Assembly: GCA_963844715.1 (NCBI GenBank)
Contig: CAWJPJ010000003.1
Location: 39,458-103,457 of the forward strand
Direction of reading: 5' to 3'
Origin: an uncultured Phycisphaerales bacterium
GTDB taxonomy: Bacteria > Planctomycetota > Phycisphaerae > Tepidisphaerales > Tepidisphaeraceae
DNA length: 64,000 nt
Shown here: positions 9,136-64,000 of the stretch, in pieces
Position numbering within the stretch: the first letter of the stretch is position 1
Layout: the number at the start of each line of letters is the position of its first letter
The notes under the pieces: generated by a model
What the model was told of the DNA's origin: nothing
Databases searched by the model: none
Seen by the model: only the letters and a program-made list of their open reading frames with translations
Translations under genes and position numbers: made by a program

Positions 9136-9193
9136 CGGAGAGGGGGAGATTCGAACTCCCGCTACCCTTTCGGGCAGACCGGTTTTCGAAACC
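9136..9193 (-). other. 3' half of tRNA-Ser(CGA): att site (displaced tRNA fragment)
   Basis: Minus strand GGT-TTCGAAA-ACCGG-TCTGCCCGAAAGGGTAG-C-GGGAG-TTCGAAT-CTCCC-CCTCTCCG gives the anticodon loop, long variable arm, T arm and acceptor 3' strand. The D arm and 5' acceptor strand are absent. Confidence 0.88.
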
Positions 9194-9423
9194 AACCTGA
9201 CGCCGACACAAGCAATGATACAGGAGCAAGTTGCGATCCGGCAACAACTGGCTTGCCTGCGAGCTTGCGCACAGCATTGGAACACTACCCGGAATTGTGC
9301 AAGCTCATCGAATCGTGGCCGCACCTTCCGTCGCCTATGCGGATTGGGATCATTGCCATGGTGGAAAGTAGCGACAAAGACCGATGAACAATGTCCGATA
9401 ATTCATTTCATTAAAATGGCCTA

Positions 9424-9495
9424 TTTCAACGTTCGTTGAAACGCTCAATTCAGTGTTGACGATAGCCGATTTCATCCATAGGATATCTTTCAACG
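9424..9495 (+). promoter_or_regulatory. AbiE operon promoter with inverted-repeat operator
   Basis: TTGACG (9456), 17 bp, TAGGAT (9479). IR TTTCAACG-TT-CGTTGAAA at 9424-9441, with an extra TTTCAACG half-site at 9488-9495. Confidence 0.65.
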
Positions 9496-9496
9496 G

Positions 9497-10579
9497 ATGT
9501 CGAAAATGAGCGTTTCAGTGAAATCACGAACCGAAAGATCATTGCTTCGGCAGGCCGAAGCCGCAATCCGTACATGCTTGGCCGACATTCCCTTTAGCAA
9601 GATTGATGAGGTCGTTGTCGAACGCGGAACTGACGAGGGCCGCCGTGACCTTGAAATTTCCGCCCGCTTCGGAAAGCTCCGTAAGCGGCTCATCGTCGAA
9701 GCAAAGAGCAGTGGTCAACCGCGCATTGCCCGCCAGGCCGCTACGAATTTACGGCTGCTACGCCAATCCTCTCCATCCATCTACGGTATTTTCGCCGCGC
9801 CGTTCATAACTCCTGAAACCGGTGAGCAACTTGCCGAGCAAAACATCGGCTACGTTGATTTTGCGGGCAACTGTCGGCTCTGTTTCGATTCCGTTTACAT
9901 TCGCCGCGAGGGACAAGCGAATCGTTTCACCGAGAAGCGGGATCTGCGTACATTATATTCACCGTGCGCTGAAAGCGTATTGCGTGTGCTGCTGGGCGAT
10001 CCCAAGCGCTTTTGGAAGGTTCAGGAATTGGCCACCGCCGCCGGCGTCAGCTTGGGGTTGGTCTCAAACGTCAAAGGTTTGCTGGAGGCGCGCGAATGGC
10101 TGGCGTCCGGCGAGGGCGGCATGAAGCTTGCCCAATCTCGAAAGCTTCTCGACGAATGGCGTGGCGTCTATCGGCTCGACCGAAGCCGCCGATTCGATTT
10201 CTTCACCTTGGATTCAATCGCCACTATCGAGCAAAAGCTCGCCGCCGCCTGCAAGCGGCAATCGGCCCGCTATGCGCTGGCGGCATTCTCGGCGGCGGCG
10301 CGATACGCACCGGCTGTCCGTTACCAGCGAGTTTTTGCCTACGTCGATGCTGACGTCGACGCCCTTGCCAAAGCGCTGTCTCTCAAGCCGGTGGACAGTG
10401 GTGCCAATGTGACGTTGATGGAACCGTATGACCAGGGCGTATATCTGGACAGGCGGGAGATCGAGGGCTGTACGATTACTTCACCGCCACAAACCTATTT
10501 GGACCTTTTCAGCCTGCGCGGCCGCGGCGAGGAAGCCGCTGATTTCCTGTTGAATAACGTCATGGAGCCAGCATGGTAG
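9497..10579 (+). CDS. Type IV TA antitoxin, AbiEi family
   Basis: VEAKSSGQPR...GYVDFAGNCRL N-domain, HTH (WKVQELATAAGVSLGLVSNV), C-terminal GANVTL...SPPQTYLDL...RGEEAA. Overlaps the downstream NTase gene. Confidence 0.8.
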   Translation: MSKMSVSVKSRTERSLLRQAEAAIRTCLADIPFSKIDEVVVERGTDEGRRDLEISARFGKLRKRLIVEAKSSGQPRIARQAATNLRLLRQSSPSIYGIFAAPFITPETGEQLAEQNIGYVDFAGNCRLCFDSVYIRREGQANRFTEKRDLRTLYSPCAESVLRVLLGDPKRFWKVQELATAAGVSLGLVSNVKGLLEAREWLASGEGGMKLAQSRKLLDEWRGVYRLDRSRRFDFFTLDSIATIEQKLAAACKRQSARYALAAFSAAARYAPAVRYQRVFAYVDADVDALAKALSLKPVDSGANVTLMEPYDQGVYLDRREIEGCTITSPPQTYLDLFSLRGRGEEAADFLLNNVMEPAW

Positions 10580-11400
10580 GCAGCCGCATCGACTATCCCG
10601 ATCTGGCCACGGAAGCCGCCCGCATGGTGATGCTGGAATTGGTGCGCATCCTGGGCGAATACAAGGATTCCATGGCCATCGTCGGCGGTTGGGTGCCGGA
10701 ACTACTGTTTGCGAACGCCCAGCCCAAACACATCGGCAGCATCGACGTGGATATCGCGCTCGATCATCGCACGATCGATGCCGAGGTATACCGGACGATC
10801 CGCGAACACCTGGCCAGACATGGTTATGAAGAAGGGCCACAGCCGTTCATCTTCTTTCGCACCGTGACCGTCGGCAGCCAAGCGATCAAAGTGCAGGTGG
10901 ATTTCCTGGCGGGCGAATACCAGGGCACAGGCAAAAGCCACCGCCATCAAACTGTGCAAACTTTGAAGGCCCGCAAGGCGCGCGGCAGCGACCTCGTATT
11001 CAAGATGTCCGAGCAGGTCAGAATAGAAGGCCACCTTCCCAGCGGTGCTGCCGATTCAGCCATGGTCAAAGTCGCTGGCATCGTCCCATTCATCGTGATG
11101 AAGGCAATGGCGCTGGCAGACCGCCTCAAGGCCAAGGATGCGTGGGATCTATGGTTCTGCCTGACAAACTTCGCCGGCGGCAATGCGGCGCTGGCCCTCG
11201 CATTCCAGCCCCACCTCCACAATAAGCTGGTGCAAGAAGCTCTGACAAAGATCGCAGACAAATTCCAATCGCCCGCCCATTTCGGCCCCCAAGCCGTGGC
11301 GGATTTCGACGACCTCCCGCCAGGCGACGACCGCGATCTGCGAATCCGAGATGCGTTTGAGCGGGTCGATGATTTGCTCCGCAGGCTTGAGGTTCGGTAG
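10573..11400 (+). CDS. Nucleotidyltransferase toxin, AbiEii-like
   Basis: IVGGWVPELL...HIGSIDVDIAL (GG...DxD) and MKAMALADRLKAKDAWDL. Confidence 0.8.
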   Translation: MVGSRIDYPDLATEAARMVMLELVRILGEYKDSMAIVGGWVPELLFANAQPKHIGSIDVDIALDHRTIDAEVYRTIREHLARHGYEEGPQPFIFFRTVTVGSQAIKVQVDFLAGEYQGTGKSHRHQTVQTLKARKARGSDLVFKMSEQVRIEGHLPSGAADSAMVKVAGIVPFIVMKAMALADRLKAKDAWDLWFCLTNFAGGNAALALAFQPHLHNKLVQEALTKIADKFQSPAHFGPQAVADFDDLPPGDDRDLRIRDAFERVDDLLRRLEVR

Positions 11401-11944: not shown

Positions 11945-11991
11945 CTCAATTTTATCGCCAGTCTAAACGGGTGACTTTGGAGGTTCTCGGG

Positions 11992-12104
11992 TATTCAGCC
12001 ACTGCCTCACCATTCCGCAAATGATAGTTACCGCCAAACTGATATATTCGCAGTTGACTATCATTTATGGGATTGATACAGTTAATGAGGTAATAATGGA
12101 ATGC
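11992..12104 (+). repeat. 113-bp direct repeat, copy 1
   Basis: Identical by eye to 59294-59406 (TATTCAGCCACTGCC...AATAATGGAATGC). AT-rich, with internal IR AAATGATAGT/ACTATCATTT. Confidence 0.95.
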
Positions 12105-12544
12105 CAAATTAAGCCGGATTCCAACGCCAAGCCGCAATTCACTCAGGCCAATTCCGCCGCTGTCTCTGCTTGCGGCGGATTCACGTTCAACCTCAGCAGC
12201 GCCAAATTTGACGACATTGGCAACGGCCTCCTGTCCCCGGCTGGATCGGATTTTGATTACACCTCCGGCAATCTGTCACCCCGCGTCCTGCAGGCCTTGC
12301 TGACCCAATCGAGCGATGTAACCTCGGACTGGAGAAGCAGCAATCCCGCGGATGATTTGTTGATCGATTCCGGCCCCACGAGCGGCGAGCCGTTTGCTGG
12401 CGCTGCCCTGAAGAAATCCCCCGAAGGTGTTTCCAGCGAAGTCTCTCTCCCCGCGGCGTCCTGGCAGAGCCTGCCCCTTTTGGTGCTCATCGCCGTCCTT
12501 CCCGCCGCGCAAAAAAGTTGGCCAAATCACGCTCCCGGGCTTAA
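12105..12544 (+). pseudogene. 5'-truncated surface protein with VPLPA/PEP-CTERM-like sorting tail
   Basis: S/G/D-rich segment, then EVSLPAASWQSLPLLVLIAV (TM), then in an adjacent frame the basic tail RAKKLAKSRSRA*. No signal peptide; coding-like sequence begins at the repeat. Confidence 0.45.
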
Positions 12545-13210: not shown

Positions 13211-13283
<73 letters not shown>

Positions 13284-13326: not shown

Positions 13327-14343
13327 TCAATAAGTTTCATAGGTGAGGGTCGGATTCGCGCGAAAGACGCGATGGATCAGAGCTGTGTAGGCGATGACCA
13401 ATGGCATGCCGAGCAAGGCTATTACCAGCATCACTTCCAGTGTCCGACTACTGGAGGAACTGTTGTAAATCGTGAGGCTGGCGCTTGGGTCATTCAGGCA
13501 GGGAAGAAGGCGGGGGAACAGCCCAATGGCGGCGAGGGTCATCATCAGGCAGATGAGCGCTGAAGAAGCTGCAAACGTCCGGCCGTAATGACCGGATTTT
13601 AAACCGATCGGAATATAGACCGCGGCGCCGATGAGAAGAAGACCGACAGGCCAGGTCAGCGGCCTTGTGTAGATCGACTGGGTCAGGGATGGCGCCCATA
13701 TCAAGGTAGCGCAGGTGACTACCAGAAACATAAATATGGCGACGGCCCAGGAGGAAATTGCCATAGCCGCCAGCCCGAATCGGGCCTGTTCATCGACTTT
13801 TCCGGCCAGATAAATCGCGCCGTGCATGAAGAAGATGGATACGCCGAGTATGCCAACGAGGAGCGCATAAGGATTGAGAAGATCGAAAAACGAACCCGCG
13901 TAGGATCCATCGGTGGTGAAGGCCACGCCGCGGAGAACATTCCCGAACGCCACGCCGAATAGCAAAGCCAGAAGAAAACTGCTGGTTCCGAAGGCGGTAT
14001 CCCAGATTGTTCGCCAGCGCGGGCGATCGACCAATCCGCGGAATTCGATTGAGACGGCGCGAAATATCAGCGCGGCCAGCACGAGCATCAGCGCGAGATA
14101 AAATCCGCTGAAGACGGTTGCGTAGACGATGGGGAATGCGGCAAAGAGCGCGCCGCCGGCGGTCAGGAGCCAGACTTCGTTGCCGTCCCAAACCGGGGCG
14201 ATGGCGTTGATGAAACTTTTGCGGGTCTTGTCATCGCCATGCAGCAGATGGAGCATGCCGACGCCCAGATCGAATCCATCCAGTACGGCATATCCGCCCA
14301 GAAGAACGAAGACAAGAACAAACCAAATGGCGTTGAGGGTCAT
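13327..14343 (-). CDS. cydB: Cytochrome bd quinol oxidase subunit II
   Basis: YAVLDGFDLGVG, PVWDGNEVWL and FRAVSIEFR. ATGA overlap with cydA. Confidence 0.97.
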   Translation of the reverse strand: MTLNAIWFVLVFVLLGGYAVLDGFDLGVGMLHLLHGDDKTRKSFINAIAPVWDGNEVWLLTAGGALFAAFPIVYATVFSGFYLALMLVLAALIFRAVSIEFRGLVDRPRWRTIWDTAFGTSSFLLALLFGVAFGNVLRGVAFTTDGSYAGSFFDLLNPYALLVGILGVSIFFMHGAIYLAGKVDEQARFGLAAMAISSWAVAIFMFLVVTCATLIWAPSLTQSIYTRPLTWPVGLLLIGAAVYIPIGLKSGHYGRTFAASSALICLMMTLAAIGLFPRLLPCLNDPSASLTIYNSSSSSRTLEVMLVIALLGMPLVIAYTALIHRVFRANPTLTYETY

Positions 14344-15728
14344 GCGCGCACCAGATTCCTTTCATCAGAGCCGGTGGCGCTGGGAACGGTCGAGCGAATT
14401 TTGCCGGCCGCCATGTCCGGGCCCTCGCGAATTTTTCTGACCAACAAAAATACATAGAGCGTTCCCAGGATCAGGTAGATAACGCTGAACAATATGATGG
14501 AAAAGAGCACCACTGCGGCCGAGAGGTTTGAGGAATAGGCATCGGCGGTGCGGAACACGCCATAAACGGCCCAGGGTTGGCGACCGATTTCAGCGGCCAT
14601 CCAGCCGAGCTCGCAAGCCGCAAGCGGGAGAGGGATCGAAATCACCAGGAGCCGAAGGAATCGAGGGCTGTCGAACAGCCTCCCGCGCGCCAGTTTAATC
14701 GTGCCCCACACCATCACGACGATAAAATAGAGCCCCAAAACCACCATATTGTGGAACGAAACGAAAGTCATCCAAAGAGGAGGAATATCAGCGGCGGGAA
14801 ATTCGTTGATGCCTTTGATCTTGGCGTTAACGTTGCCGAAGGCCATCCAACTCAATAGCCCCGGCACCTCGGCGGTGTCCTTGAGCGTTGGAGGCTTGGT
14901 GAAGGGAACGGCAAACATGACCAGCGGCGCGGCGTTTTGACTGGTGTAAAGTCCTTCAATTGCCGCGAATTTGGCCGGCTGGGTGTGTGCGACCTGCTTG
15001 GCGTGCATGTGTCCGAACGGAAAGACCTCCATCACGCTGACGATGACTCCGAAAGTAATCGCCAGCTTGAGCGTATAGCGTCCGACCACATTAGCGCGAT
15101 CTTTCAGCAATACCGCCGCCGAAACCCCGGCCATGAAAAACGCTCCCGTAACGAAGGCGGCGAACATCGTGTGAAAGAAGCGGGGCCACATTGAAGGGTT
15201 GAACACGGCCGCATAAAAGCTGGTCAGCTCGGCGCGCCCGTTGTGGATGACGTAACCAGCCGGGGTCTGCATCCAGGAGTTGGCCGCCAAAATCCAGAAC
15301 GCCGAAAGCGTTGATCCGAACGCGACCATCAGGATCGCCACGAAATGCCATTTCTTGGCGATTCGGTCGCGGCCGAACAGATAAAGTCCCAAAAATCCAC
15401 TTTCGAGAAAGAAGGCGAAGACTCCCTCGGCGGCAAGCGGCGCCCCGAAGATATCGCCCACGAATTTGGAATATCGCGACCAGTTGGTCCCAAACTGAAA
15501 TTCCATTGGAATGCCGGTTGCGACGCCGACAACGAAAGTCAGCGCCAGCAGCTTTCCGAAGAAGCGTCCCGCCGCGTCGGCGACCGGGTCGTTGCGTCTC
15601 CAGGCGCGCCATTCCACGATCACCAGCAGCCACGCCAACCCGATGCTGATGGGCGGAAAAAGGAAATGGAATGCGGCGGTCAGGGCGAATTGAATTCTGC
15701 AGAGCGTTCCGACATCCAACCCATTCAT
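14340..15728 (-). CDS. cydA: Cytochrome bd quinol oxidase subunit I
   Basis: QFALTAAFHFLF, MEFQFGTNWS, EGVFAFFLES, ANSWMQTP, QPAKFAAIEG and GWMAAEIGRQPW. Confidence 0.97.
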   Translation of the reverse strand: MNGLDVGTLCRIQFALTAAFHFLFPPISIGLAWLLVIVEWRAWRRNDPVADAAGRFFGKLLALTFVVGVATGIPMEFQFGTNWSRYSKFVGDIFGAPLAAEGVFAFFLESGFLGLYLFGRDRIAKKWHFVAILMVAFGSTLSAFWILAANSWMQTPAGYVIHNGRAELTSFYAAVFNPSMWPRFFHTMFAAFVTGAFFMAGVSAAVLLKDRANVVGRYTLKLAITFGVIVSVMEVFPFGHMHAKQVAHTQPAKFAAIEGLYTSQNAAPLVMFAVPFTKPPTLKDTAEVPGLLSWMAFGNVNAKIKGINEFPAADIPPLWMTFVSFHNMVVLGLYFIVVMVWGTIKLARGRLFDSPRFLRLLVISIPLPLAACELGWMAAEIGRQPWAVYGVFRTADAYSSNLSAAVVLFSIILFSVIYLILGTLYVFLLVRKIREGPDMAAGKIRSTVPSATGSDERNLVRA

Positions 15729-16201: not shown

Positions 16202-16915
16202 CTATCCGATAAACTGTTCCGTTGATTCGTCACGAGAATCGCCTCGTGGCCTGATCTGCGCCTTGGCGGTGCGCATGTGGTCAAGCCAGTCGAGCCAGAA
16301 GTGGATGCCCGCCCCGGTCGTTGATGAAATTTCGAAAACATCCGCGGAGGGATTGAATCCGCGAACATCCCTGCGGAAGATTTCCTGGTCGAATCTGACC
16401 AGGGGGAACAAATCAATTTTCGTCAGAAGAATCGCCGAGGCGCTGCTCAGGAGCGTGTGGTATTCGGCGGCCTTATCGTCGCCGCCGCTGACGGCAAAGA
16501 CGGCGGCTGTCGCGTCCTGGCCCAGATCCAGCAGGTTGGCCAAACCTCCGGCGGCCTCGATCAAAAGGGTGTCGAAATCTTGCAGCTTGAGTTCGGACAG
16601 AGCGCGCCAGATGGAAGCGGCGTCGGGAACGGCGGCGTCGACGTGCGCGACATGGCCGCAGAGTTTCTGCAACCGCGCGGCGTCGCGATCCGAAGCGGGG
16701 TTGACCACGATTACCGCCACCCGCTTGGGCGCCGGCAGGCTGTTCAAGGCCGCCTCAATCAGCGCCGTTTTGCCGGAGCCGGGATGTCCGATGATGCGGA
16801 TTCCCAGGACGTTTGCCTGTTTCAATGCTTTGCGAATCAGCGCGGCGGGCGGGGGTCGGCCGACGTTTCGTTCTTCCGCGGCGCTGCCGACTTTGCTTTG
16901 AGTGAATTGCGTCAT
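16202..16915 (-). CDS. HypB-like P-loop GTPase lacking metal-binding Cys/His
   Basis: GHPGSGKT, LIEAAGG..LLDLGQ, GGDDKAAEY and LLTKIDL. No GCH and no ENVGNLxCP. Confidence 0.8.
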   Translation of the reverse strand: MTQFTQSKVGSAAEERNVGRPPPAALIRKALKQANVLGIRIIGHPGSGKTALIEAALNSLPAPKRVAVIVVNPASDRDAARLQKLCGHVAHVDAAVPDAASIWRALSELKLQDFDTLLIEAAGGLANLLDLGQDATAAVFAVSGGDDKAAEYHTLLSSASAILLTKIDLFPLVRFDQEIFRRDVRGFNPSADVFEISSTTGAGIHFWLDWLDHMRTAKAQIRPRGDSRDESTEQFIG

Positions 16916-16922
16916 GGTGCAC

Positions 16923-17621
16923 CTACCGTTTGGGGATATGAATGAACGGATCAAACATGCGAGGTGATCGATTGTGGGAATGATTGGGCGACACATGCGA
17001 TTCCACCCACTCGGCCCAGAGGTCTATGCCCTTATCGGAGGCAACGGACGACTGGATGACCGGCATTTTGGGTTTAATGCGCAAGACGTCCTGGATGAAC
17101 ACGTTCAAATCAAATTTCACCAGAGGAAGCAGGTCGATTTTGTTGAGAATGACCAGGTCGGATCCGGCGACGAGGAATGGATATTCCGTGGCCTTATCGT
17201 CACCCCCGGCGACGCTGAAGACGGAGGCGCGGAAATGCTGGCCAAGATCGAATTCCACGGGACTATAGGAACTGCCTTCGGATTCGATCAGCAGCAGGTC
17301 AAGTTCGCTGAGATTCAATTGAGTCAGCGCCTGGCGGACATTGATGGCGGCGAGGCTATCGGTAACCAGCGGGATCACCTTGCAGCGATGGCGGGCGATG
17401 CGCTGGACCTGCCGTTCGGCGGCGAGTTCGGCGACGATGGCGGCGGTGCGAATTCGCGGATTCAACCGCGACAGCAGCGCCTCAGTCAGCGCGGTTTTTC
17501 CCGAACCTGCCGGACCGACCAGACTGATGGCAACCACGCCCGCGGCGGTCAATCTCGCGCGGTTCTCGCGGGCGATTGGATCGTTGAGATCAAATCTGGT
17601 TTTCAAGGTTACCGTGTCCAT
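16923..17621 (-). CDS. Second HypB-like P-loop GTPase lacking metal-binding Cys/His
   Basis: ARENRARL...GPAGSGKT, LIESEGSSYSPVEFDLG, GGDDKATEYP and ILNKIDL. No GCH and no CP cysteine. Confidence 0.82.
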   Translation of the reverse strand: MDTVTLKTRFDLNDPIARENRARLTAAGVVAISLVGPAGSGKTALTEALLSRLNPRIRTAAIVAELAAERQVQRIARHRCKVIPLVTDSLAAINVRQALTQLNLSELDLLLIESEGSSYSPVEFDLGQHFRASVFSVAGGDDKATEYPFLVAGSDLVILNKIDLLPLVKFDLNVFIQDVLRIKPKMPVIQSSVASDKGIDLWAEWVESHVSPNHSHNRSPRMFDPFIHIPKR

Positions 17622-17637
17622 AATTCCACCTGCTGCA

Positions 17638-18078
17638 TTACGACTGCTGATGCGGCCCCTGCGGCGCTCGGTCAATCTCTTTCCGCAACTGATTGTGCCG
17701 GGTCAGCGTCGCGCGGTCGTTCCATAAAACGAGCGAGCAAATGATGAGCATCCAGATCGGCAGCGTCGGCAGGGCAAGCTCCGGTCGGGTCAACGCAAGT
17801 ATCGCGCCCGACAACAGCGCGGAGATTCCAATTCCGAAGCGGACCATGCGTCCAATACGAAAACGACGAGCGCGCATCTCCGACTCGACGGAAAAACGCG
17901 GCGCTTCACTTTCGAGTCTCCTGTCTGTTCCAAACAGAGCCTTCCGATTCGAAGCCGATCGCCAAACTCTCGTCCGATGACGTCCTTGGCGCGATCGACG
18001 CAGCGAAACAAAGTGCGCAAAGCGATCGTCCCGTTTATCGGAATCAATCGAGTCTGATGCTGTCGTGTCGCTTCGCAT
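17638..18078 (-). CDS. Small membrane protein (2 predicted TM segments)
   Basis: FGIGISALLSGAILAL and LPIWMLIICSLVLW. Tightly packed between pckG and the hypB-like gene. Confidence 0.55.
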   Translation of the reverse strand: MRSDTTASDSIDSDKRDDRFAHFVSLRRSRQGRHRTRVWRSASNRKALFGTDRRLESEAPRFSVESEMRARRFRIGRMVRFGIGISALLSGAILALTRPELALPTLPIWMLIICSLVLWNDRATLTRHNQLRKEIDRAPQGPHQQS

Positions 18079-18096
18079 AAGTCTCTCTTGCAAGGC

Positions 18097-19902: not shown

Positions 19903-19997
19903 AACGATTTCCTTCGCTAAGCCGGATTTCATTTCCGGCGGGTAAATATTGACGCCTTCAAATCCGGGCCGAAGATGTCCGATCAAGGAGCGTTGTC

Positions 19998-47965: not shown

Positions 47966-47967
47966 TC

Positions 47968-49014: not shown

Positions 49015-49032
49015 AGCACCAGAAAGTGAGTC

Positions 49033-52439: not shown

Positions 52440-52452
52440 AAAGGTAATTGCA

Positions 52453-54370: not shown

Positions 54371-54741
54371 GCTATCAATTGCCGAGGGTATTTTGAATCT
54401 GGCTCGCCGAAACGTGCCGTACGGGCGCCGTGTTGCTGTCCGTACGCGTCAACGCGGGTCCGATGCGCGGGATCGATCCGCGGTGCATGGAGCTCGCCTG
54501 GACTGCATTGGGCCGATCGGACGTGTCTTTGAAACTAACCGTCCTTCCCTGGCGGATGCAATGCGGCGAATGCGGCCGGCAGTGGGAACAAGCGGAACTA
54601 GCCGAACGATGCGCCTGCGGATCCTCGCGGGTGCGCCCGATCGGAGGGGATGAATTGCAGTTGCTTTCCATCGAAGTGGATGATGCCGAAGAAATTGACA
54701 GGAGGCGATCATGTTTGTGCAAGTTGTCGAAAACGTACTGA
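54363..54741 (+). CDS. hypA: Hydrogenase nickel chaperone (frameshift ~54425)
   Basis: MHELSIAEGI, CGECG...CACGS...GGDELQLLSIEV. Confidence 0.9.
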
Positions 54742-55466
54742 AACTGAACGACGAGATGGCCGCGTTGAACCGCCGCCGGCTGCGGAAGGCGGGGGTTTTC
54801 ACGGTTGATCTAATGGGCGCGCCGGGATGCGGAAAAACCGCCCTCATCGAGGCCACGCTACAGCGTCTGCCTGCGGATCTGCGCACCGGCGTCATCGTCG
54901 GCGATTTGACCACCCAGCGCGACGCCGACCGCATGGCAAAATTCACGGATCATGTCGTGCAGATCAATACCGGCAAGGGTTGTCATCTCGAAGCCCATCA
55001 CATCATGCAAGGCATGTCGCGACTTGATATCGAAAATCTGGATCTCCTTTTTATCGAAAATGTCGGCAACCTGATCTGTCCGGTCGGATTCGATCTGGGC
55101 CAGGACGTGAAAGTGGGCATGTTCTGCACCACAGGCGGCGACGATAAGGCCGCCAAGCATCCGTATATCGTCTGCGAATCGTCTCTTCTGCTGCTCAACA
55201 AAACCGATCTGCTGAACTATGTTCCATTCAACCTGTCGTTATTCCGCGACGACGTTCACCGGCTCAATCCCGATGTCGAACTGATGGAACTGTCGGCCAT
55301 CAGCGCCGACGGGATGGATGCCTGGATCAATTGGCTCGACGCGCAGCGGCAAGCATCAAATCTGAAATCATTGCATCAAACTGCAAACACCCGGATAATC
55401 TGCGCCGACGAAATGACGAATCCATGTGTGGTCAATACCGCCACGGCGAGATGCGGACTTTTATGA
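54711..55466 (+). CDS. hypB: Hydrogenase nickel incorporation GTPase (canonical)
   Basis: [38 protein letters not shown] and NKTDL. Confidence 0.95.
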
Positions 55467-56415
55467 GATCGCCAAATCCGAGCGATTCGACATGCCCATC
55501 GCAGAAGGCGATGTTGATGACACCCCCAATATGGCGATCGGCTTTTGACGGGTTATATGGCTCCTTGGCCAAAGGAATACGATTGCCAAGCCAAGAGGCT
55601 GCGGCGATGTCGGACATTCGGCCGCCGGAACAATAGTTTGAAGTGTAATACAGGCAATCGTTGTAATCCAAAGGGCTCACAATCGCTCCGGATTGCGGCC
55701 TGGTGCCGCAGTCAGCGAAAAGCAGTGTCTCAGCGGATTTGTAGACGCGGTCAAGACGACAGCGGAGTGGTTGGCCGAGTTTGCCCGGAGCATTGTTGTC
55801 CCCGAATACGCTGTAAGAGTTACCTGCAACGGCGAATACAGTATTGCCAAACTGATCTGTCAGCATCGTCATGTCGGCATTGATACCGTAGGAAATGGGG
55901 AAATAGGGTCCGCCGCTCACGTTGTTGAACAGGCGATAACCAGGATTCGATCCGGTAAGCCACACGTCGCTGGGGCATTGAAAAACCTTCGTCTGGGTTT
56001 GCGGGGCGTTCTCGAAGTTGCTGTCCCCTGTACTGTCCTTGCCGCCCTGACCGAGATAAGGAATCAGGGAACTGGCCCAGTCTTTCGCGACGTAGTTTGT
56101 GGGTGGGTAAGTGGCACCGCTTGGAGTGGGATTATCACGATAGGCGAAATAAGAAGCCGGCATGGTATCGTTGATCTTGGCCCACTTATCATCGCAGACC
56201 GTCGGCAGACGACGCTGGTGATCGTTCGCAAAAAGCAGCGCGGCCGTTACCAATTGCCGCAAGTTGGATTGACACTGAATCAGTTGTGCCTGTGCCCGCG
56301 CTTTGTTGAGCGCCGGCAAGAGTATTCCGATCAAGACCGCAATGATGCCGATCACAACCAGCAGTTCGACAAGCGTGAATCCGTTTGCTTTGCTTTTGCC
56401 CTGACCTTGTTTCAT
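55432..56415 (-). CDS. DUF1559 prepilin-type N-terminal cleavage/methylation protein with H-X9-DG motif
   Basis: [40 protein letters not shown] and [15 protein letters not shown]. Confidence 0.92.
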
Positions 56416-58815
56416 GGGTGCCTCCGAGGCATGTGTGCGGACTGTGTGGCGAGATGGCGTAATGGGTTTGTGTTTCGGCGGCGCCGTGTGAGCAACACCG
56501 CCATATTCAGAACAAGAAATGAAGTAGTCGCCGGTTCGGGGACATTGACCAGCAGACCGTTGACGGCGGCGAACGCGTCCAATGCCGCCATATCCGCCGC
56601 CGGCTGTGAAACGTCCGTGCCGTTGTCCGACAGACCGAAGTTCGCGGCAAACATATTGAAATCCGCGATATTCACCGTGCCGTAGTAACCGAAATCTCCG
56701 GCTTCCCAGCCGAGCGTGGTGGGCAGGCCGAAATTGGGGGCGAAGATGTTGAAGTCGGTGATGTTCACACTGCCGTCGAGGTTGGCGTCGCCGTCGAGGG
56801 TGTACGCCACTTCGATCTGGTTGGTGGGAACCGTGGTGCCCAGGACGCCGTCGTTGCCGTCGACGAGGCCGACGCCGTAGCCGGACAATCCAGCGCTGCT
56901 GATGATTGCACCGCTTTTGATGTAACCGAGGATCGACGAGAAAGTCGGGCCGGTGGTGCTGGTGCCGGTGGTGGCATCGGTGAAGTGATTATTGTTGATG
57001 TCGAAAACCGAGTTCCCGTTGATCGTCAGGGACGACATCGAGCTGCCGCCGGTGTTGGTGGCCAGTTTCAGCGTATTGGTAACAGTGCCGTTGCCGACCG
57101 TTACACTCCCCGCGCCGCTAATTGTGCCCACGGTCTGATTGCCGTTGACCACCAGCGCGCCGTTGTTGTTGATCGCCACGCCGTTGCCGCCCAGCGCTCC
57201 ATTGGCATTGACGTCAAGCGTGCTGCCCGTGCCGATTGCCACGGTCGTGGCGGCCAAAAGACTGCCGGCGGAATTCAGATTGACGATGCCATTGCCCGTG
57301 AAGTTAATCGCACTGGCCACATTGTGGTCGTTCAGCGCGCCCAGGTTCAGGGATCCCAATCCGCTGCCGTTGTTGGAAACATTAAAAGTGACGCTGCTGT
57401 TGACCGATGTTCCGCCGAACGTGACGGAATAAGGAGTGTTGGCGCCGCTGCCGGCCCCGGTCACGTTCAGGGTTGAACCGGCGTTCATCGTCAGCGAGCC
57501 AAGCGTGGCGGTGCTGCTGGGAATCTGGAGCCCATAGCTTGTTCCGGCCGCAATGGTGGTCGGCACCGTGGGGGATAGCGCGTTGTAATACGAGATCGTG
57601 CTGCTCGACACGTAAGCGGCATTCGATGTACTCAGCAGGTTGTTCTGCACTAATTCCTGACCAAACAAAAGCCAGTCGTTGACATCGTTGAATCCCAGAC
57701 CGTTCATATCGGCCGCGGGATTGAACGCCATGCCGTTGCCGGCGACGTTGTTGGAGAAGTTAAAAACGTCCGTCGTGTTGATGTGTCCGTCTTCGTTGAG
57801 ATCGCCAAGCCCGAGGCCGTTGAGCGTCGAGTGCCCCAGGTCGGGAACCTCGCTGGCGGTGAATCGCTGGATGCTGTCATTGCCATCCGGGCGATAGCTG
57901 ACAACCGTGCCGACATTGTTTCCGTTCTGAAGGTTACTAAAGCCGTAGGCGAATAAAGTCTGGTCGATTTGTCCGGCCAATCCGCCCTGATAGGTCACAC
58001 CGTTAATGGTGTTGTTCCCTGTTGTGACCATGTTCAGAATCTGCGCGTTGGTGATGCCGGCCGGCAGATTGAGATAAACATATTCGCTGGTGGCGGTCCC
58101 ATCCGATTGGATATCGAACTGCCGGTTTTCATAGGTTGTGGGGGCCGACGCAAACGGGGCGAAACTTTGAACGCTGGACGTCGGCGTTCCGCGATCGACA
58201 TAAATCGTGTCATACCAGTCGCTATAAACTGGAGGAGCGGTGGGATCAGGATTGTGGCGGAAGGAGATGACTTCAAGGTAATGATATCCGATGGAAAGGT
58301 TGGCGGTGTCGATGGTTTGGGAATAGGCGCCGTTTCCGTTGGCGTTGTAATATCCGGGTGAAGAATTGGCGAAATTCTGATAGCCGTAGGAAACATCGCC
58401 GGTGATCGTGTCGACCTGCCCGACCCCCGCGCTTTGACTGGCCGTCGGCGTGGTGGATGTTGTGCCGTTGGCGGCCACGGTGATCGTGCCGCCGTCGATT
58501 GTGAACTGGGCGTTGTCGCCGTCGGCGTCCTGGTCGTGATAGACCTGCGTTGGAGAAACCTGCAGATTGGCTTCAACGGTGTTCAGCGACAAGACGAAAG
58601 AAGAAGCGGTCACCACGTTGACGGCGGTATTTCTCTCGGTGCCGTTGCTGTAATTGGCATTGGGTTCCCATCCGCCCGGCGTCGTGCCGGTTCCGGTCTG
58701 GCTGGCCATCACGGAAGCAACATTGCTTGTCGCGATCGAGCCGGTTGGCGTCGGGAGGCCATAGATGAGGAAGCCGTCATTGGTTGAATAAGAGCTGGTG
58801 GTGCTGCCCTTTTCC
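56412..58815 (-). pseudogene. PEP-CTERM surface protein with dockerin-like repeats, apparently 5'-truncated
   Basis: T/S/G/N-rich beta-repeat body, [25 protein letters not shown] and [24 protein letters not shown]. The first ~115 codons of the called ORF (to 59156) are not protein-like and have no signal peptide. Confidence 0.7.
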
Positions 58816-59293
58816 GGGGTTCTGATCTGCGGTTTTGGAAGCATCCCACCGCAAATCCTGGGCGCACTACATCCCAATGCTTGTCGTTCATTTGACTCTG
58901 ATTTGCTTCCCCAAACCCGCTTCTGTCGGCTCAAAGTGCAGGCAACACAGCATTGTTGTGAGCTGACGGCCGAATGGATTGGTGGAACATGATCGAGTTG
59001 CCGACCATCGGCTCTAGCAGTGATTGCCCTCGGGCCGCTTAGTAAACATTGCCGGACCAATTCCCGACCGCCTCGGGCATATACATTGCACGCCGATTGT
59101 GACAGCAAGAGCGGGTTGGCTGACCGTCTATGTGCGTTTTTGATGCAGATGCGCATGCACCTCCGGGTTGTCGATCACCTCATCCTGGATTCGTCCCGAC
59201 ACTTTGTGCGCATTCCTTTGAATGCTCCGTCACCTCCAATTATTACCCTGCTCCGTGCGCAGATGTTCGCATTGCACCTGACTTACAATCGCT

Positions 59294-59406
59294 TATTCAG
59301 CCACTGCCTCACCATTCCGCAAATGATAGTTACCGCCAAACTGATATATTCGCAGTTGACTATCATTTATGGGATTGATACAGTTAATGAGGTAATAATG
59401 GAATGC
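59294..59406 (+). repeat. 113-bp direct repeat, copy 2
   Basis: Identical by eye to 11992-12104. Lies about 140 bp upstream of the relaxase start. Confidence 0.95.
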
Positions 59407-59545
59407 AAGATAAAGGGGTGATTCAGGTGTTTCGTATCTGTAGCAATTACAACCACTTTCGGCGAATCATCCGCATTTTGGCAAGTGGGTTTGTCTGCGT
59501 TGGATGCACAAGTGACTGTCACCATTGAACTTCGGGAGCGGTGTC

Positions 59546-61091
59546 ATGGCGAAACGTGCAAATCGGTCGAATGCCAGAGACGGCGTTGATTCGGATCGCA
59601 TCGGGCGCACTGGCGGACGCCGAGGCCGCGAGCGGAGCGTCAATGGGGAGATTGCCAAGCGGCTCGGGCGGGGGTTCTGGCACACCAAGATGCGCGGCAG
59701 ATCGCGCGCGCCGTGGTGGGTTCAGGGGGCGCGGGACCATGCCGTTTGGTAGCAATCCGCGCGCACAACGGGCGACGGTTAAGATGCTGTCCCGCTTCCA
59801 TTCGCGCAGGTCTGGCAGCGGGCTTGCGCGCCACACGGGCTACCTTGCCCGCGACAGCGCCAGCAAGGACGGGGAGCGCGGGACGTTCTTTGCGCGCAAG
59901 AAGATCGACTGGATGGGCGGTCAGTGACGCGGGAATGGGAAGGAGACCGTCACCACTTCCGGCTCATCCTGTCACCGGAGAAGGGGTACGAGATCGCCGA
60001 CATGCGCGCCTATGTGTGCGATGTGATGCAGCGCATCGAGCGCGATGTCGGCACCAAACTCGACTGGATCGCCATCGAGCACCACAACACCGACAATCCG
60101 CATGCGCACATCCTGTTTCGGGGGAAGGACGAGCAGGGGCAAGACCTCATCCTGCGCCGTGAGTACATCAGTCACGGCATCCGGCAGAGGGCATCCGAGG
60201 CGGCGACAGACCTGCTTGGAGAGCGCACCGAAAGGGAGATGGAGCAGGCCCGAGAGAAGGAAGTACAGGCGGAGCGGTTCACATCTTTGGACCGGACCAT
60301 CGAGCGCAACATGGACGAGCGGCACATCATCGACGTGTCACCGGATGTCCAGATCGGCTGGCGACGGTCTGATCGGCCGCTGGTGATTGGGCGCTTGCAA
60401 TGGCTGGAGAAGATGGACTTGGCAGAGAAGGTGCGGGGAACGAAGTGGCAACTTGACCCCGACTTCAAACAGCAGTTGATGGACTTGGGCGCGCACCATG
60501 ACATCATCAAGCAGCTATACGGCAGCTTGGGGAACCAGTCCATGCATGTGTCGAGGGAGCCGATTACCCAGGCTGTATCGGGTGAAGTGGTTGCCATGGG
60601 GCGGGTCGATGAGATCACCGACAGGCGCTTTGTTGTCATCCGGGACGAGGCCGGAACGATGCGCGTATGCGCGCGTCCAGGACGGAGAGGCGTACCAATC
60701 CTTGAGCATTGGCAACATCGCGGAGCTTGGACGAGGGGCGCAGGAGCGCCGGGAGATTGCCCAGGAGATCGTCGAGCAAGCCAAGGCTAAGGATGGGATT
60801 TACTCCCCGACCAAGCATCTCGACAACCTGCTCGACCGCGCCGGCGATGACGCGACATCGGACCGGCCGCGCGACATGGTGGACAAGGCCGAGCGTTTGG
60901 CCGAGTCGTGGGCCAGCAAGCCCGGCACCGGAATCACCCATTCAGAGGGCGGCGATTATGAAGTTGATGTTGCCGACTTCGAGAAGTTCATGGGCAAGCA
61001 GACCGACCGGGAAGCGGCTATCGGCATTACTGACGTGAACAACGTAACGTTGGAACTGGAACAGGGCCGGGATAGCGGCCTGGAACTTTAA
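59546..61091 (+). CDS. VirD2/RlxS-like MOBP relaxase with DUF3363-like region (frameshifted)
   Basis: QRATVK...LARHTGYLARD (motif I Tyr), HHFRLILSPE, LDWIAIEHHNTDNPHAHILFRG (3H motif), EVQAERFTSLDR and C-terminal GRDSGLEL*. Confidence 0.88.
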
Positions 61092-61582
61092 TGGACAAGT
61101 ACCCCCTGACAATCCGGCTGGACGACGAGTTGCTTAAAGTCATAAAGGTGCAGGCGGCGCTAACCAGATCGTCTCTTGGCTCGGTTGTTGTAGACGCTGC
61201 TCGCCAAGCGCTGATGCCCGAATACCGGGAGAAGCAGGAGCAAACATTGCTCAAAGCCATGGATCGCTGCTTCAACCGGATGGTCAAGATGCACGAGGAC
61301 CAACAGACACAGCATGAGCTGGTCCGGGAGATGTTGGCGATGTTTGTGCGCACGTTCCTTCGGCACACGCCGGCGGTGAAGCCGGAACATAGGGAGGCTT
61401 CAACGGCCAGCGCCGCCAAACGATTTGAAGTTTTCCTGGATGCGCTGGCGACCAATCGCCGGAACCGCCTATCTGTGATGGACCCGGCGCCGAAGCAGCA
61501 AAGCCAAGCACCGACAGCATCCAACGACAACTCCCAAGCTATTTCGAGTCCTCCAACATTGTTCGGGACATCGAGATCATGA
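61091..61582 (+). CDS. CopG/RHH-family protein of the type found next to ICE transfer genes
   Basis: N-terminal RHH LTIRLDDELL...VVDAARQAL and C-terminal EMLAMFVRTFLRHTP...AKRFEVF. Start overlaps the relaxase stop. Confidence 0.7.
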   Translation: MDKYPLTIRLDDELLKVIKVQAALTRSSLGSVVVDAARQALMPEYREKQEQTLLKAMDRCFNRMVKMHEDQQTQHELVREMLAMFVRTFLRHTPAVKPEHREASTASAAKRFEVFLDALATNRRNRLSVMDPAPKQQSQAPTASNDNSQAISSPPTLFGTSRS

Positions 61583-61764
61583 TGGGCAAATTAGACAACC
61601 CGATGATCGCCCCTCGCAGCCCGGCTGACGTTCCGCCGCTGCACCAGCCTGCTCCGGGCGACAAGCCGGCCGCCATGCTCGGCCGATTACGGCCTGCGCG
61701 TGGCAGCACGTCTTGCAGCCCTGCGCGACGGCCGGGCCTGCGCTCGTTCCTTCTGCTATCCGCC

Positions 61765-61807
61765 GTTTCTCTTCAACCCCCTTCTGGTTGCGGGGTTGAA
61801 GAGAAAC
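61765..61807. other. Perfect 16-bp inverted repeat (11-nt loop)
   Basis: GTTTCTCTTCAACCCC / GGGGTTGAAGAGAAAC. Confidence 0.8.
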
Positions 61808-61933
61808 TTTGTGCCTGGGAGGACACCGAATGCCGTTAAAGGCGATTACCCTCGCGTAAGTTGTTAGCGTTAAAAACATGGTACGCTTGGAATAGATGGT
61901 TACCATGATGATCTCAGGAAGGAGCTAGACAGA

Positions 61934-62161
61934 ATGGCACGCCCCCGCATCTCCCCGGAACTTCAGACGGTACAGCGAACCTATCGGTTCAACCAGAAGT
62001 TATTTGACGACTTTGAGTACGATTGCGCCAGGAATCTTGCGAATCCCAAGCATGTGCTCGAAGCGTTGATCTTGCACTGGCTGGAATCGAAGCCCGCGGT
62101 CCGTTCCGCAATCGCCGAAAAACATCATAAACGATTCGGTGTCACGCCGACCGAGGATTGA
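61934..62161 (+). CDS. Small hypothetical protein, possibly RHH-like regulator
   Basis: MARPRIS...QRTYRFNQKLFDDF...VLEALILHWL. AGGAG RBS upstream. Confidence 0.6.
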   Translation: MARPRISPELQTVQRTYRFNQKLFDDFEYDCARNLANPKHVLEALILHWLESKPAVRSAIAEKHHKRFGVTPTED

Positions 62162-62289
62162 CCACCAACACGTTGCGTGACCGTGCCCCAAGCTTCCCGG
62201 AAATTTGACGGATTCTAATTGACTTTGTTAATGACTATAATAACATTTACCATGTTCTCGATATTCATCGGGACCTTTCTGCAACGCCC

Positions 62290-62589
62290 ATGGCATCGAC
62301 ATTGGAACAAAATCCTGGCGATCCAATCCTCATCGCTTCCACGGTTCGTCATCGAAACGGGATGCAATCCCAATCGCTCGGCATATCAGCCGCCGAAGCG
62401 TCGGCGTTGCTCGGCGTTTCCGAATCACATTTTTACTGCCTGCACAAGACTGGTCGGCTTGGACCGTTGCCGGTGCGAATGGGCCGCGCGGTAAGATGGT
62501 CGCGTCAGGAGTTGGTAAACTGGTTCAATGCCGGCAGCCCGTCGCGAAGTCGATGGCAGGCGATAAAAGGAAATGGTAACGGCAGGTGA
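62290..62589 (+). CDS. AlpA/excisionase-like HTH protein
   Basis: ISAAEASALLGVSESHFY...GRLGPLPVRMGRAVRWSRQELVNW. Ends 3 bp before the integrase. Confidence 0.85.
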   Translation: MASTLEQNPGDPILIASTVRHRNGMQSQSLGISAAEASALLGVSESHFYCLHKTGRLGPLPVRMGRAVRWSRQELVNWFNAGSPSRSRWQAIKGNGNGR

Positions 62590-62592
62590 ATT

Positions 62593-64000
62593 ATGTCAAT
62601 ACGACGTATCCCTTACACGGACAAGAAAACTGGCGAGAATCGTCTCACCGAAAAGTTTTACGTGGTCTTTCAAGATCAAGCTCAAATCCAGCGTCGTTTG
62701 CCTGGATTCGCTGATCGCAAGGCGACGGTCGAAGTCGAGCGTAAGGTCCGCAAGCTCGTGGAGCTTCGCGCCGCTGGCGAGACGCTTTCGCCAGAGCTGG
62801 CGCGATTTATCGAGACGATGCCGCCGGCAATGCGAGAGCGACTTGCTGAATGGGGCGTGCTGGACAAGACCCGTGTGGCGGCTGGCAAGCCCCTGACGCA
62901 ACACATAGAGGATTGGCGGCAAGCTCTTCTCGCCAAAGCAAACGGCCGGGATTATGTCGATCTTGTTGCAGCCCGAGCGCAAGCCGTATTTGATGGATGT
63001 GGCTTCAAATTCTGGAGCGATCTTTGCGCGGAGAAGGTTCAAGCCCACCTTGCGGAACTGCGCGAGCATAAGCCTGAGAAGAAAGGAATTGGTCCGCAGA
63101 CCTCTAATTTCTACCTTCAGGCGGTCAAACAGTTTTGCAAGTGGATGGTGCGGGCGAGGCGCGCCACGGAATCGCCAGTGGCTCACCTGCAAGGCTTGAA
63201 TGTCAAAGCCGACCGTCGCCACGATCGGCGTGCGTTTTCGGTTGACGAGCTTCTTTGGGTGCTCAAAACTACAGAAAATGGGCCGGAACGATTCTTTTCG
63301 TCGGGCAAGGAGCGTGCGCTCCTGTATCGCTTGGCTGTAGAAACTGGCTTGCGGCGCGGCGGGCTGGCCCGATTGACTCGCCAATCTTTTGAACTGGACG
63401 GCGTTGATTCAACAATCTTGGTGAAGGCGGGAGCGAAGAATAAATACAAGTCAGACCGCCGTGTGCCACTTCGGGCAGAGACGGCAAGGCTGTTACGCGA
63501 ATTCCTCGAAAAGAAGATGCCAGAAGCGTTGGCGTTCAAGGTGCCGAGTCACAAACATTCCGCGAAAATGATTCGTGCCGACCTGGATGCAGCGCGAGCC
63601 GCATGGCTGGATACCGCGGAAACGCCGAAGCTGCGGGAAGAGCGGGAGCAGTCCGATTTTCTGCGGTACAAGAATGCCGTCGGCGAGTACCTCGATTTCC
63701 ATGCGTTGCGTCACACGCGCGGTGTCTGGTTGTTCGAGCATCACAAAGCGCATCCGCGCGAGGTGCAGGAATTGATGGGTGTCTCGTCGCTCGCGCTCGT
63801 TGATCGTTACACGCGAAGTTTCCGCCTTACCGATTTGAGCTTGATTGAGCGCGGCCCCGACCTATCGAAAGCGCCCGACGACGTCAGCGGCGCACAAGCT
63901 GCAACGGGCACAGACGGAGAGACCGGTATTTGTTTGTCTGCCAGCTTGCGCCTAAAGGGCGAAGTTCAGCGGATTTCGGCAGACCTCCATGGAGTCAGCA
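62593..64000 (+). CDS. Tyrosine recombinase/integrase (runs off window; missing from the ORF track)
   Basis: Manual translation from ATG 62593 gives MSIRRIPYTDKKTGE...LYRLAVETGLRRG...AKNK...DFHALRHT...QELMGVSSLALVDRYT...ATGTDG, with no stop by 64000. Confidence 0.93.
   Translation, partial: MSIRRIPYTDKKTGENRLTEKFYVVFQDQAQIQRRLPGFADRKATVEVERKVRKLVELRAAGETLSPELARFIETMPPAMRERLAEWGVLDKTRVAAGKPLTQHIEDWRQALLAKANGRDYVDLVAARAQAVFDGCGFKFWSDLCAEKVQAHLAELREHKPEKKGIGPQTSNFYLQAVKQFCKWMVRARRATESPVAHLQGLNVKADRRHDRRAFSVDELLWVLKTTENGPERFFSSGKERALLYRLAVETGLRRGGLARLTRQSFELDGVDSTILVKAGAKNKYKSDRRVPLRAETARLLREFLEKKMPEALAFKVPSHKHSAKMIRADLDAARAAWLDTAETPKLREEREQSDFLRYKNAVGEYLDFHALRHTRGVWLFEHHKAHPREVQELMGVSSLALVDRYTRSFRLTDLSLIERGPDLSKAPDDVSGAQAATGTDGETGICLSASLRLKGEVQRISADLHGVS

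Follow-up and report, generated by a model that had tools for sequence, protein, structure and literature searches.

The DNA described here, the window, is a stretch of 64,000 nucleotides (C3:39458-103457) at the right end of contig C3 (103,457 bp) of G000, a metagenome-assembled genome (MAG) of an uncultured Phycisphaerales bacterium that belongs to genus g1 and is 85% complete with 3.95% contamination. Window positions 9194-64000, followed by 5 nt and by the last 64 nt of a second contig, C5, very probably form one integrative mobilizable element, which we call element B and which occupies the 3' half of a tRNA-Ser(CGA) gene. Its interior, counted with one terminal repeat, comes to about 54.9 kb, and its genes include a fermentative, hydrogen-cycling kit. 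The evidence that carries this conclusion is a displaced part of the tRNA gene at the far end of the element, a nearly identical copy of the whole element in another genus, and an unoccupied tRNA-Ser site in the two relatives of the same genus.

Element B at the tRNA-Ser(CGA) site

The left border of the element is defined by two adjoining features.

9072-9133, minus strand: native downstream flank of tRNA-Ser(CGA), outside the element; its homologue follows an intact tRNA-Ser in G001 and G002
9134-9193, minus strand: distal attachment (att) repeat, the displaced 60-nt 3' part of tRNA-Ser(CGA), 100% identical to C5:364573-364632

When reversed and complemented, 9134-9193 corresponds to the 3' portion of a type-II tRNA and contains the end of the 5' strand of the anticodon stem, the CGA loop, the long variable arm, the T-arm and the 3' strand of the acceptor. 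Since it is a 3' part only, it is called neither by ARAGORN nor by Rfam, both of which call a single tRNA in the window, tRNA-Gly(CCC). A BLAST search of the G000 assembly returned two more 60-nt copies, both 100% identical; one lies in the 3' part of the intact tRNA-Ser(CGA) at C5:364543-364631 and the other at C5:384181-384240, 64 bp short of the right end of C5. Three identical copies of this length, as read from the assembly, far exceed chance. The tRNA-Ser fragment that had been proposed from the letters of the window is therefore real, although its extent is 9134-9193 (60 nt) and not 9136-9193. Just downstream of the displaced tRNA end, at 9015-9117, a GC-rich motif of 47 nt that contains a hairpin occurs twice in tandem (89%), and a motif 90% similar to it follows tRNA-Ser(GGA) at C8:269135-269184. 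Elsewhere in G000, 24 tRNA genes (one undetermined), among them a second, different tRNA-Ser(CGA), are packed within about 2.8 kb at C6:953276-956065.

The sequence-only reading had expected an intact minus-strand tRNA-Ser(CGA) shortly after the integrase, in the next window. Position 64000 is the end of C3, so that no such window exists, and the right border was instead located by comparison with G142 (also listed as L034), an uncultured Phycisphaerales MAG of the same family that is placed in genus g86. G142 carries the whole of B on a single 2.07-Mb contig, at its own tRNA-Ser(CGA), with the distal repeat at C4:1893352-1893411. There 5 nt separate the base that matches window 64000 from the one that matches C5:384304, and the order in G000 is therefore tRNA-Ser, island A, repeat, B, repeat, native flank. 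The expected intact tRNA is found in G142, 70 nt past the base that matches 64000; in G000 the integrase end abuts the second repeat on C5, and island A, which could not have been foreseen from the window, stands between this repeat and the intact tRNA. Island A occupies 19.6 kb of C5 between the intact tRNA-Ser and the second repeat and encodes a frameshifted integrase, IntA, which adjoins the tRNA-Ser and reads towards it, together with an HTH_17 protein, a 546-aa relaxase/DUF3363 protein, an insertion sequence (IS) and a PIN/HTH pair. On the assembled contigs, islands A and B are thus shown to stand in tandem between the intact tRNA-Ser and its native downstream flank.

The comparison with G142 also shows how closely the two copies of B agree. 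Window 9134-55372 is 99.81% identical to G142 over 46,261 nt, with 54 mismatches and 34 gap positions, and window 55373-64000 is 99.78% identical with 5 mismatches; overall this amounts to 99.8% over 54.9 kb and 59 substitutions. The substitutions are thinly spread, with small clusters in abiEi and in the H+-translocating pyrophosphatase (H+-PPase) gene. Of 48 indel positions, 13 are at or beside runs of at least three identical bases, and many of these indels may be sequencing errors. The identity starts and stops exactly at the 60-nt repeats. Beyond them, window 1-9133 matches G142 at 68-75% over parts of its length, the 10-kb flank upstream of the G000 tRNA finds, the tRNA aside, only short matches of 79-85%, and the flanks of the G142 copy match G000 at 65-77% in scattered loci. 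The 16S identity of G142 to G000 is 95%, the same as for G007, which is also of another genus; the corresponding values are 97% for the same-genus G002 and 93% for G018. When 141 genomes of the family were scanned with window 52000-64000, B was present at about 100% in G000 and G142 only. The nearest relative of G142, G137, is 93% identical to it in both flanks; at the threshold used, the hox genes and the integrase of B were unmatched in G137, and only module-like matches of 83-87% occurred elsewhere in that genome. At its tRNA-Ser(CGA), G137 has 82 kb of other DNA before the homologue of the left flank (C2:1564092-1646533), and the site resembles a hot spot for insertions.

A relatives set of 30 genomes was available, and the tRNA-Ser locus was inspected in both same-genus members, G001 and G002. 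In G001 (contig C72) synteny with C5:352-360 kb runs up to the tRNA-Ser(CGA), which is followed at once by the homologue of window 9133-9072; the match to the flank and the 3' part of the tRNA (L013:12740-12806) is 83% identical. The arrangement in G002 (contig C18) is the same, with 88% identity at L014:19616-19680, again including the 3' part of the tRNA. Neither island A nor B is present at the tRNA-Ser of these two genomes, and the genes of B are thus not a syntenic core at this site; such a core would have spoken against the element. Farther downstream, synteny with G001 and G002 breaks down, which is unsurprising in view of 27 further full-length copies of an 893-nt IS in G000. This IS, which encodes a DDE transposase, lies in the window at 3690-4582, 5 kb outside the repeat; the further copies (99.3-99.9%) are on contigs C1 and C4-C8, and G142 has no match to it. 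An unoccupied site was also sought in the genomes of g86 and rejected, because synteny there was too scrambled.

The identity of 99.8% in another genus, the flanks at 65-77% and the unoccupied sites together show, to the extent that genome comparison can, that the whole of B, cargo included, entered at least one of the two hosts very recently. Passage between cells is what we infer from this identity across genera. The proposal that everything between the tRNA fragment and the integrase belongs to one element is upheld, since the entire stretch, bounded by the 60-nt repeats, recurs in G142; movement among planctomycetes, which had been raised as a possibility, is supported by its position at the tRNA-Ser(CGA) of another genus.

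The mobility module and the means of transfer

The right end of the window holds the genes for integration and mobilization.

59289-59415: second copy of a 127-nt direct repeat, running into the conserved mobility module
59541-61038, plus strand: RlxS-like relaxase (Relaxase and DUF3363 domains, Pfam), in three open reading frames (ORFs) through assembly indels
62290-62589, plus strand: HTH_17 (AlpA/excisionase-type) protein, PF12728
62593-64000, plus strand: IntB, a tyrosine integrase (PF00589) that reads towards the att repeat and the tRNA and is open at the contig end

The integrase, AlpA and relaxase genes had been named at this end beforehand, and the domain matches bear this out. PF00589 covers residues 235-409 of IntB, with the HxxR box and the RY tyrosine visible in the translation, PF12728 is found in the HTH_17 protein, and the relaxase/DUF3363 match at 59924-60790 is split by assembly indels. 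From about 59343 onwards the module is shared at 84-89% identity with C1:41863, C6:168516 and C5:374341, so that G000 holds four copies, and it occurs in several genomes of g86 at 87-92%. The intact 546-aa relaxase of island A scores 298 bits (E 1.6e-88) against the NCBIfam model NF041267 for RlxS, of which the cut-off is 850 bits; judged by this profile, the relaxase is RlxS-like and lies below the level for membership in RlxS. IntB itself is 99% identical to the integrase of G142, and it is a paralogue of IntA, with 40-47% amino acid identity. The copy of the module at C6:166418-168516, 89% identical to that of B, lies about 7 kb from a tRNA-Leu(CAA) (C6:159557-159640), near which no repeated tRNA-Leu fragment was found. 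In a public metagenome run, X3, a contig is 99% identical to the module through the end of the HTH_17 gene (window 62563) and then continues into unlike sequence that is not IntB; in this sample the module seems to have another partner on its downstream side.

A Pfam scan of 65 ORFs in the window found no family of the type IV secretion system (T4SS) and no coupling protein (T4CP) of such a system. We also considered an integrative conjugative element (ICE) and rejected it, as a complete T4SS is absent from the window. With an integrase, att repeats and a relaxase present and no T4SS, B is, by gene content, an integrative mobilizable element.

The relatives of IntB suggest how it is targeted. 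In 14 of 17 IntB-related loci (L035 and G007:C29 being counted once), a tRNA gene is found directly 3' of the integrase gene. Relatives with at least 60% identity are all at tRNA-Ser(CGA), among them an orthologue in G007 (73% nt) that abuts an intact tRNA-Ser(CGA), and the more distant ones are at Ser(TGA), Thr, Asp, Met, Arg or Lys tRNAs. An HTH_17 gene stands upstream of the integrase in 10 of 16 related loci, L034 being excluded. In 12 of the 14 IntB-family loci with an adjoining tRNA (L034-L050; G000 C5:364456-365478), the integrase frame has no stop before the tRNA, running antisense into it in 3 loci and through it in 9, so that the protein would have one C-terminal tail when the element is integrated and another when it is excised. 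In G142 a difference of 1 nt from G000 leads to an earlier stop.

From these data we infer that IntB integrates the element at the 60-nt core and that the element is mobilized by a helper. IntB would recombine the 60-nt core of attP with the identical stretch of the tRNA gene, whereby an intact tRNA is restored, and the HTH_17 protein may serve as a directionality factor. After circular excision the RlxS-like relaxase would nick an origin of transfer (oriT), which probably lies within or close to the 127-nt region that immediately precedes the relaxase operon, and B would then be mobilized by a conjugation apparatus supplied in trans, a step that is proposed because B is without a T4SS. The AbiEi/AbiEii pair and a type ISP restriction enzyme may stabilize or defend the element.

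The strongest alternative accepts that B is borne by its integrase and supposes that it travels otherwise than by relaxase-dependent mobilization, for example by transduction, in vesicles, or by transformation followed by the action of the integrase. It gains some weight from the lack of a T4SS in B, in which no oriT was identified either, and from the available part of a preprint on the Planctomycetes plasmidome, according to which conjugation among planctomycetes is unreported and no complete mating-pair formation (MPF) system is found in their chromosomes. Against it, the RlxS-like module accompanies all four element copies in G000 and occurs in several g86 genomes, T4CP and VirB4-like genes are located elsewhere in the genomes of both hosts, and the 65 ORFs scanned included no evident phage structural gene. 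We consider such a vehicle improbable.

Cargo, assembly and origin

The remaining features comprise the distal end of the backbone and the cargo.

9497-11400, plus strand: AbiEi/AbiEii toxin-antitoxin pair at the distal end of the backbone (PF09952, PF08843)
11987-12113: first copy of the 127-nt direct repeat, left border of the cargo, 96% identical to 59289-59415
13211-13283, plus strand: tRNA-Gly(CCC), intact, inside the element (ARAGORN, Rfam)
13327-15728, minus strand: cydB and cydA, cytochrome bd oxidase (PF02322, PF01654)
16202-19986, minus strand: CobW/HypB-like GTPase and GTP-dependent phosphoenolpyruvate carboxykinase (PEPCK) (PF02492, PF00821, PF17297)
21266-24053, plus strand: PAS histidine kinase and LuxR-type response regulator (Pfam), collinear with C1 and G001:C7
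24132-31964: secondary insertion in the cargo, with GH62, an IS4-like transposase and a type ISP restriction-modification enzyme in four ORFs (Pfam)
33141-35689, minus strand: H+-PPase, two ORFs in G000 (PF03030 in two halves)
35823-44074: ADP-forming acetyl-CoA synthetase (ACS) with GNAT domain, adenylate-kinase-like protein, dihydroorotate dehydrogenase-like protein and pyruvate:ferredoxin oxidoreductase (PFOR) (Pfam)
44174-49014, plus strand: hypF, hypD, hypE (Pfam)
49033-55466, plus strand: hoxE, hoxF, hoxU, hoxY, hoxH, a 170-aa ORF and hypB (PF01257, PF01512, PF13510, PF01058, PF00374, PF02492)
55372/55373: deletion point of G000 relative to G142, which has 7.5 kb extra
55432-59156, minus strand: DUF1559/N-methyl protein (PF07596, PF07963) and a 914-aa protein without Pfam or NCBIfam match

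The Pfam matches agree with the genes that had been claimed between the two ends, from cydBA, PEPCK and H+-PPase to ADP-forming ACS, PFOR, hypFDE, hoxEFUYH and hypB. The description of this set as anaerobic energy metabolism does not extend to cytochrome bd, which is an oxygen reductase. The PFOR scores 1774.5 bits against TIGR02176 (NifJ type, single-chain; NCBIfam), for which the cut-off is 911. HoxEFUYH form one operon at 49033-53877, with PF01257, PF01512 and PF10589, PF13510 and PF10588, PF01058 and PF00374 in this order, and thus all five subunits of a predicted NAD-coupled bidirectional [NiFe] hydrogenase (Hox, group 3d) are encoded; the best NCBIfam match of HoxH is VhuA-like and falls below the cut-off. 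The tRNA-Gly(CCC) of B differs from the second genomic copy (C7:176854-176926) by a compensated T-stem pair, a cyd homologue is found in G001 on another contig (C3; 71%), and the stretch with the GTPase and PEPCK has paralogues at C6:626339-628111 (78% aa) and on C1. The AbiEi/AbiEii pair has no counterpart in G001, G002 or G007. A 63-aa remnant of the 914-aa protein lies beside the module of island A.

The two 127-nt repeats enclose the cargo. Beyond copy 1 the sequence departs from the mobility module into cargo, while copy 2 continues into the module. By this layout B is composite, with 47 kb of cargo between the repeats, an arrangement that would be expected if a circle had recombined into a small backbone. 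The cargo was probably captured in this way, through recombination at the 127-nt sequence, from a chromosomal or element-borne kit of the kind found in G001 and G002; the backbone would have consisted of att, AbiE, the 127-nt sequence, the module, int and att.

Four public runs from two studies (X1-X4), the contigs of which were aligned to window 44001-64000, allow the assembly to be assessed. Indels of one or two bases relative to G000 occur at 44089, 44789, 45990, 54423, 59696, 59891 and 60665 in most or all of the four runs, and those at 44789, 45990, 54423 and 59891 recur in all four. Judged by these contigs, the recurrent indels are assembly errors, and the interruptions of hypF, hypB and the relaxase are false frameshifts rather than pseudogenes, the case being made for hypF by the same indels in all four runs. 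Further frameshifts in G000 are probably errors too; for the H+-PPase, an intact 854-aa homologue exists in G002, and indels relative to G142 lie at 34353-34639. The left ends of two contigs, C3:1-920 and C7:79-1000, share 922 nt at 99.6% identity, and this repeat is probably the reason for the breaks there.

The one large difference between the two copies of B is at 55372/55373, where G142 has 7,527 additional bases (C4:1939601-1947127) that encode HupE/UreJ, B12/radical-SAM, YbaK-like and cytidylate-kinase-like proteins, Usp and an aldo-keto reductase. Contigs of X1, X3 and X4 leave the window sequence at this point from both sides because the G142-type form, to which they correspond, has 7.5 kb more there, and the sequences of their loose ends are nowhere in G000. 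Run contigs also end inside the 127-nt repeat. As no contig bridges 55372/55373 and contigs stop at the repeat, the join between cargo and module is backed by the G000 and G142 assemblies only.

These observations bear on a second alternative, that B exists only in a G142-like organism and that C3 is a chimera, produced in assembly or binning, which was joined at the 60-nt tRNA sequence, so that no transfer between genera took place. Such an error is easier to imagine in a MAG with the completeness, contamination and recurrent indels of G000, in which both C3 and C5 end at the integrase-side border of B and of which the junction at 55372/55373 appears in no listed contig, the X1, X3 and X4 contigs being of G142 type. 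Several points speak against it. The repeat and native flank on C3 match same-genus relatives, and C3 carries the high-copy IS of G000 that is unmatched in G142. A second, independent junction exists on C5, in the succession of island A, repeat and 64-nt tail of B. Sixty shared bases would be very short for an overlap join of long reads, and the G000 copy differs from that of G142 by the 7.5-kb deletion as well as 59 substitutions. We therefore hold an artefact to be very unlikely.

The history of the kit can be followed in part outside B. The genes from ACS through PFOR, hyp and hox to hypB form one collinear stretch in G001 and G002, with 72-85% identity, and more distant members of the family have PFOR, ACS and hox at separate loci. 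The block in G002 stands amid dxr, radical-SAM, Rrf2, P-type ATPase, YbaK-like and URO-D genes with no integrase near it, and the block in G001 adjoins an intact tRNA-Met. The secondary insertion of B is missing from both of these genomes and from M, a second, divergent kit copy in G000 itself; in all three, the response regulator and H+-PPase genes are adjacent or nearly so. M is 70-79% identical to B at the nucleotide level and lies in two parts, one at C1:10868-35433 and one at the right end of C6 (regions C1:10868-47480 and C6:1247348-1256906). It has a module 85% identical to that of B, a different integrase (34% aa) and a tRNA-Met (C1, complement of 47408-47480), and its cargo is inverted relative to the module in comparison with B. 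A 37-nt fragment of the tRNA-Met core lies at C6:1247348, and a repeated motif is found just inside both ends of M. G001:C7 is the orthologue of M (79-85%), and the tRNA-Met site of G002 has no element of this type. From G001 a join of the C6 end to C1:10864 would be expected; because C1:1-10864 interrupts it, the continuity of M in G000 is not established. In a contig of a Tepidisphaeraceae MAG (L039:2-883), an IntB relative (52% aa) is preceded, at a distance of about 9 kb, by a HoxF homologue (60% aa), and this may be another hydrogenase-bearing element. The block in the two same-genus relatives indicates that chromosomal versions of the kit exist, and one of them was probably the source of the cargo of B.

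That B is an old, vertically inherited chromosomal region, in which the kit belongs to the core of the genus and the integrase and tRNA fragment are relics without recent mobility, is barely credible, for even though the block from H+-PPase to hypB is held elsewhere in both same-genus relatives, in G002 without an integrase, and the composition of B is unremarkable, the tRNA-Ser site is unoccupied in both of them and the identity to another genus, far above that of the flanks and 16S, stops at the repeats.

A number of results nonetheless weigh against the conclusion that B is a single mobile element captured, moved and integrated as we propose. Besides the missing oriT, the two ends of B share no direct word of at least 9 nt that could represent arm-type repeats, and only one inverted 9-mer, in comparison with island A and M, where arm-type motifs are visible by eye. 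Excision was not observed, as there is no empty attB within the species of G000 itself, and no circular attP was found in two scans of metagenome contigs. Exact stretches of 50 nt and 25 nt over the boundary of distal repeat and interior gave 0 hits each in such contigs. Both G000 junctions come from an error-prone MAG assembly in which the integrase end of B falls together with two contig ends; the junction at 55372/55373 is found in none of the listed run contigs, and the 7.5-kb deletion is a feature of the G000 assembly alone. With the kit present in both same-genus relatives, chromosome-like in G002, the cargo is not intrinsically element-borne. The composition of B does not discriminate, since its tetranucleotide distance is equalled or exceeded by 11.7% of 77 genome windows and is not atypical; its GC content is 58.4%, that of the genome 59.4%. 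The donor and the direction of transfer are likewise not indicated by a HoxH tree of 21 rows, which places B in neither host genus. The G000 and G142 copies of B pair as sisters in this tree (100/100), g86 is spread over at least three lineages, and support is confined to this pair and a few shallow clades, with weak deeper branches; the row for M is unreliable because of assembly frameshifts.

Taken together, the data allow a broader reading that we offer only tentatively, as on balance it is unlikely to hold in full. RlxS-type, tRNA-targeting elements of Tepidisphaeraceae-like Phycisphaerae would shuttle a complete fermentative, hydrogen-cycling module, captured between duplicated oriT-proximal 127-nt copies when an excised circle recombines there, either homologously or through the relaxase. 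Two divergent kit-bearing elements could share a genome, as with B at tRNA-Ser and M at tRNA-Met, and acquisition would switch planctomycetes of peat and soil between an aerobic and a facultatively anaerobic way of life. The C-terminal tail of the integrase, rewritten on integration through the att core, could sense the state of integration.

Significance and comparison with known systems

The kit on B is nearly complete for anaerobic and microaerobic life, with PFOR, ADP-forming ACS, Hox and its maturation proteins, H+-PPase, PEPCK and cytochrome bd, and its transfer is documented directly by an att-bounded copy of 55-62 kb that is 99.8% identical in another genus. This suggests that Phycisphaerae of peat and soil can acquire the capacity for fermentation and hydrogen cycling all in one piece, which matters where metabolism is inferred from taxonomy in carbon-cycling wetlands. 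The pair of integrase and att site, together with the relaxase, could also become genetic tools for this phylum, in which manipulation is difficult.

There is ample precedent both for large islands that sit in tRNA genes and carry metabolic cargo and for hydrogenase genes on ICEs. What appears to be new here, from the assembled genomes, are the tandem islands, the 7.5-kb deletion in the G000 copy and the second, divergent kit copy M. The symbiosis island of Mesorhizobium, ICEMlSymR7A, is a self-transmissible, tRNA-integrated element of about 500 kb in Alphaproteobacteria. Like B it combines a tRNA site, a large metabolic trait and a relaxase of the RlxS type; B differs in its size of about 54.9 kb, in its lack of a T4SS and in a relaxase that reaches 298 bits against the cut-off of 850. 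The nitrate-respiration conjugative element (NCE) of Thermus thermophilus is likewise a transferable block of anaerobic energy metabolism; it is not known to be tRNA-integrated, belongs to another phylum, confers nitrate respiration and uses another transfer system.

In the part of the literature on planctomycete hydrogenase islands, hydrogenase-bearing integrative mobilizable elements and ICEs of Planctomycetota that was available, no description of B was found. The accessible text of the plasmidome preprint notes planctomycete chromosomes with relaxases and without a complete MPF system, and it is the absence, in that text, of any report of conjugation among members of the phylum that makes B notable in Planctomycetota; the supplements of the preprint may list relaxases of the B type. 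CMGI-2 and CMGI-3, ICEs of the Tn4371 family in Cupriavidus metallidurans CH34, carry hyp and hox genes as accessory cargo that is thought to have been secondarily inserted, according to the accessible sections of their description (PMC2864759). By that account they resemble B in being integrated, with an integrase module and hyp and hox cargo, and they differ in being self-transmissible elements of Betaproteobacteria with T4SS genes, in serving aerobic H2/CO2 chemolithotrophy and in IS-mediated capture, whereas B has no T4SS, a tRNA site, a fermentative kit with a bidirectional hydrogenase, and cargo placed between 127-nt repeats. In Hydrogenovibrio sp. SP-41, hydrogenase and maturation genes lie in a strain-specific region flanked by DNA-mobilization genes, and horizontal acquisition was inferred (PMC6501319, in the portion available). 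The likeness to B extends to the hydrogenase cluster with its maturation genes, to the mobilization genes and to the inferred horizontal acquisition. For SP-41, as far as that portion describes it, the inference was drawn from strain comparison and island prediction, whereas for B it is drawn from both att repeats, the unoccupied sites and the near-identical copy in another genus.

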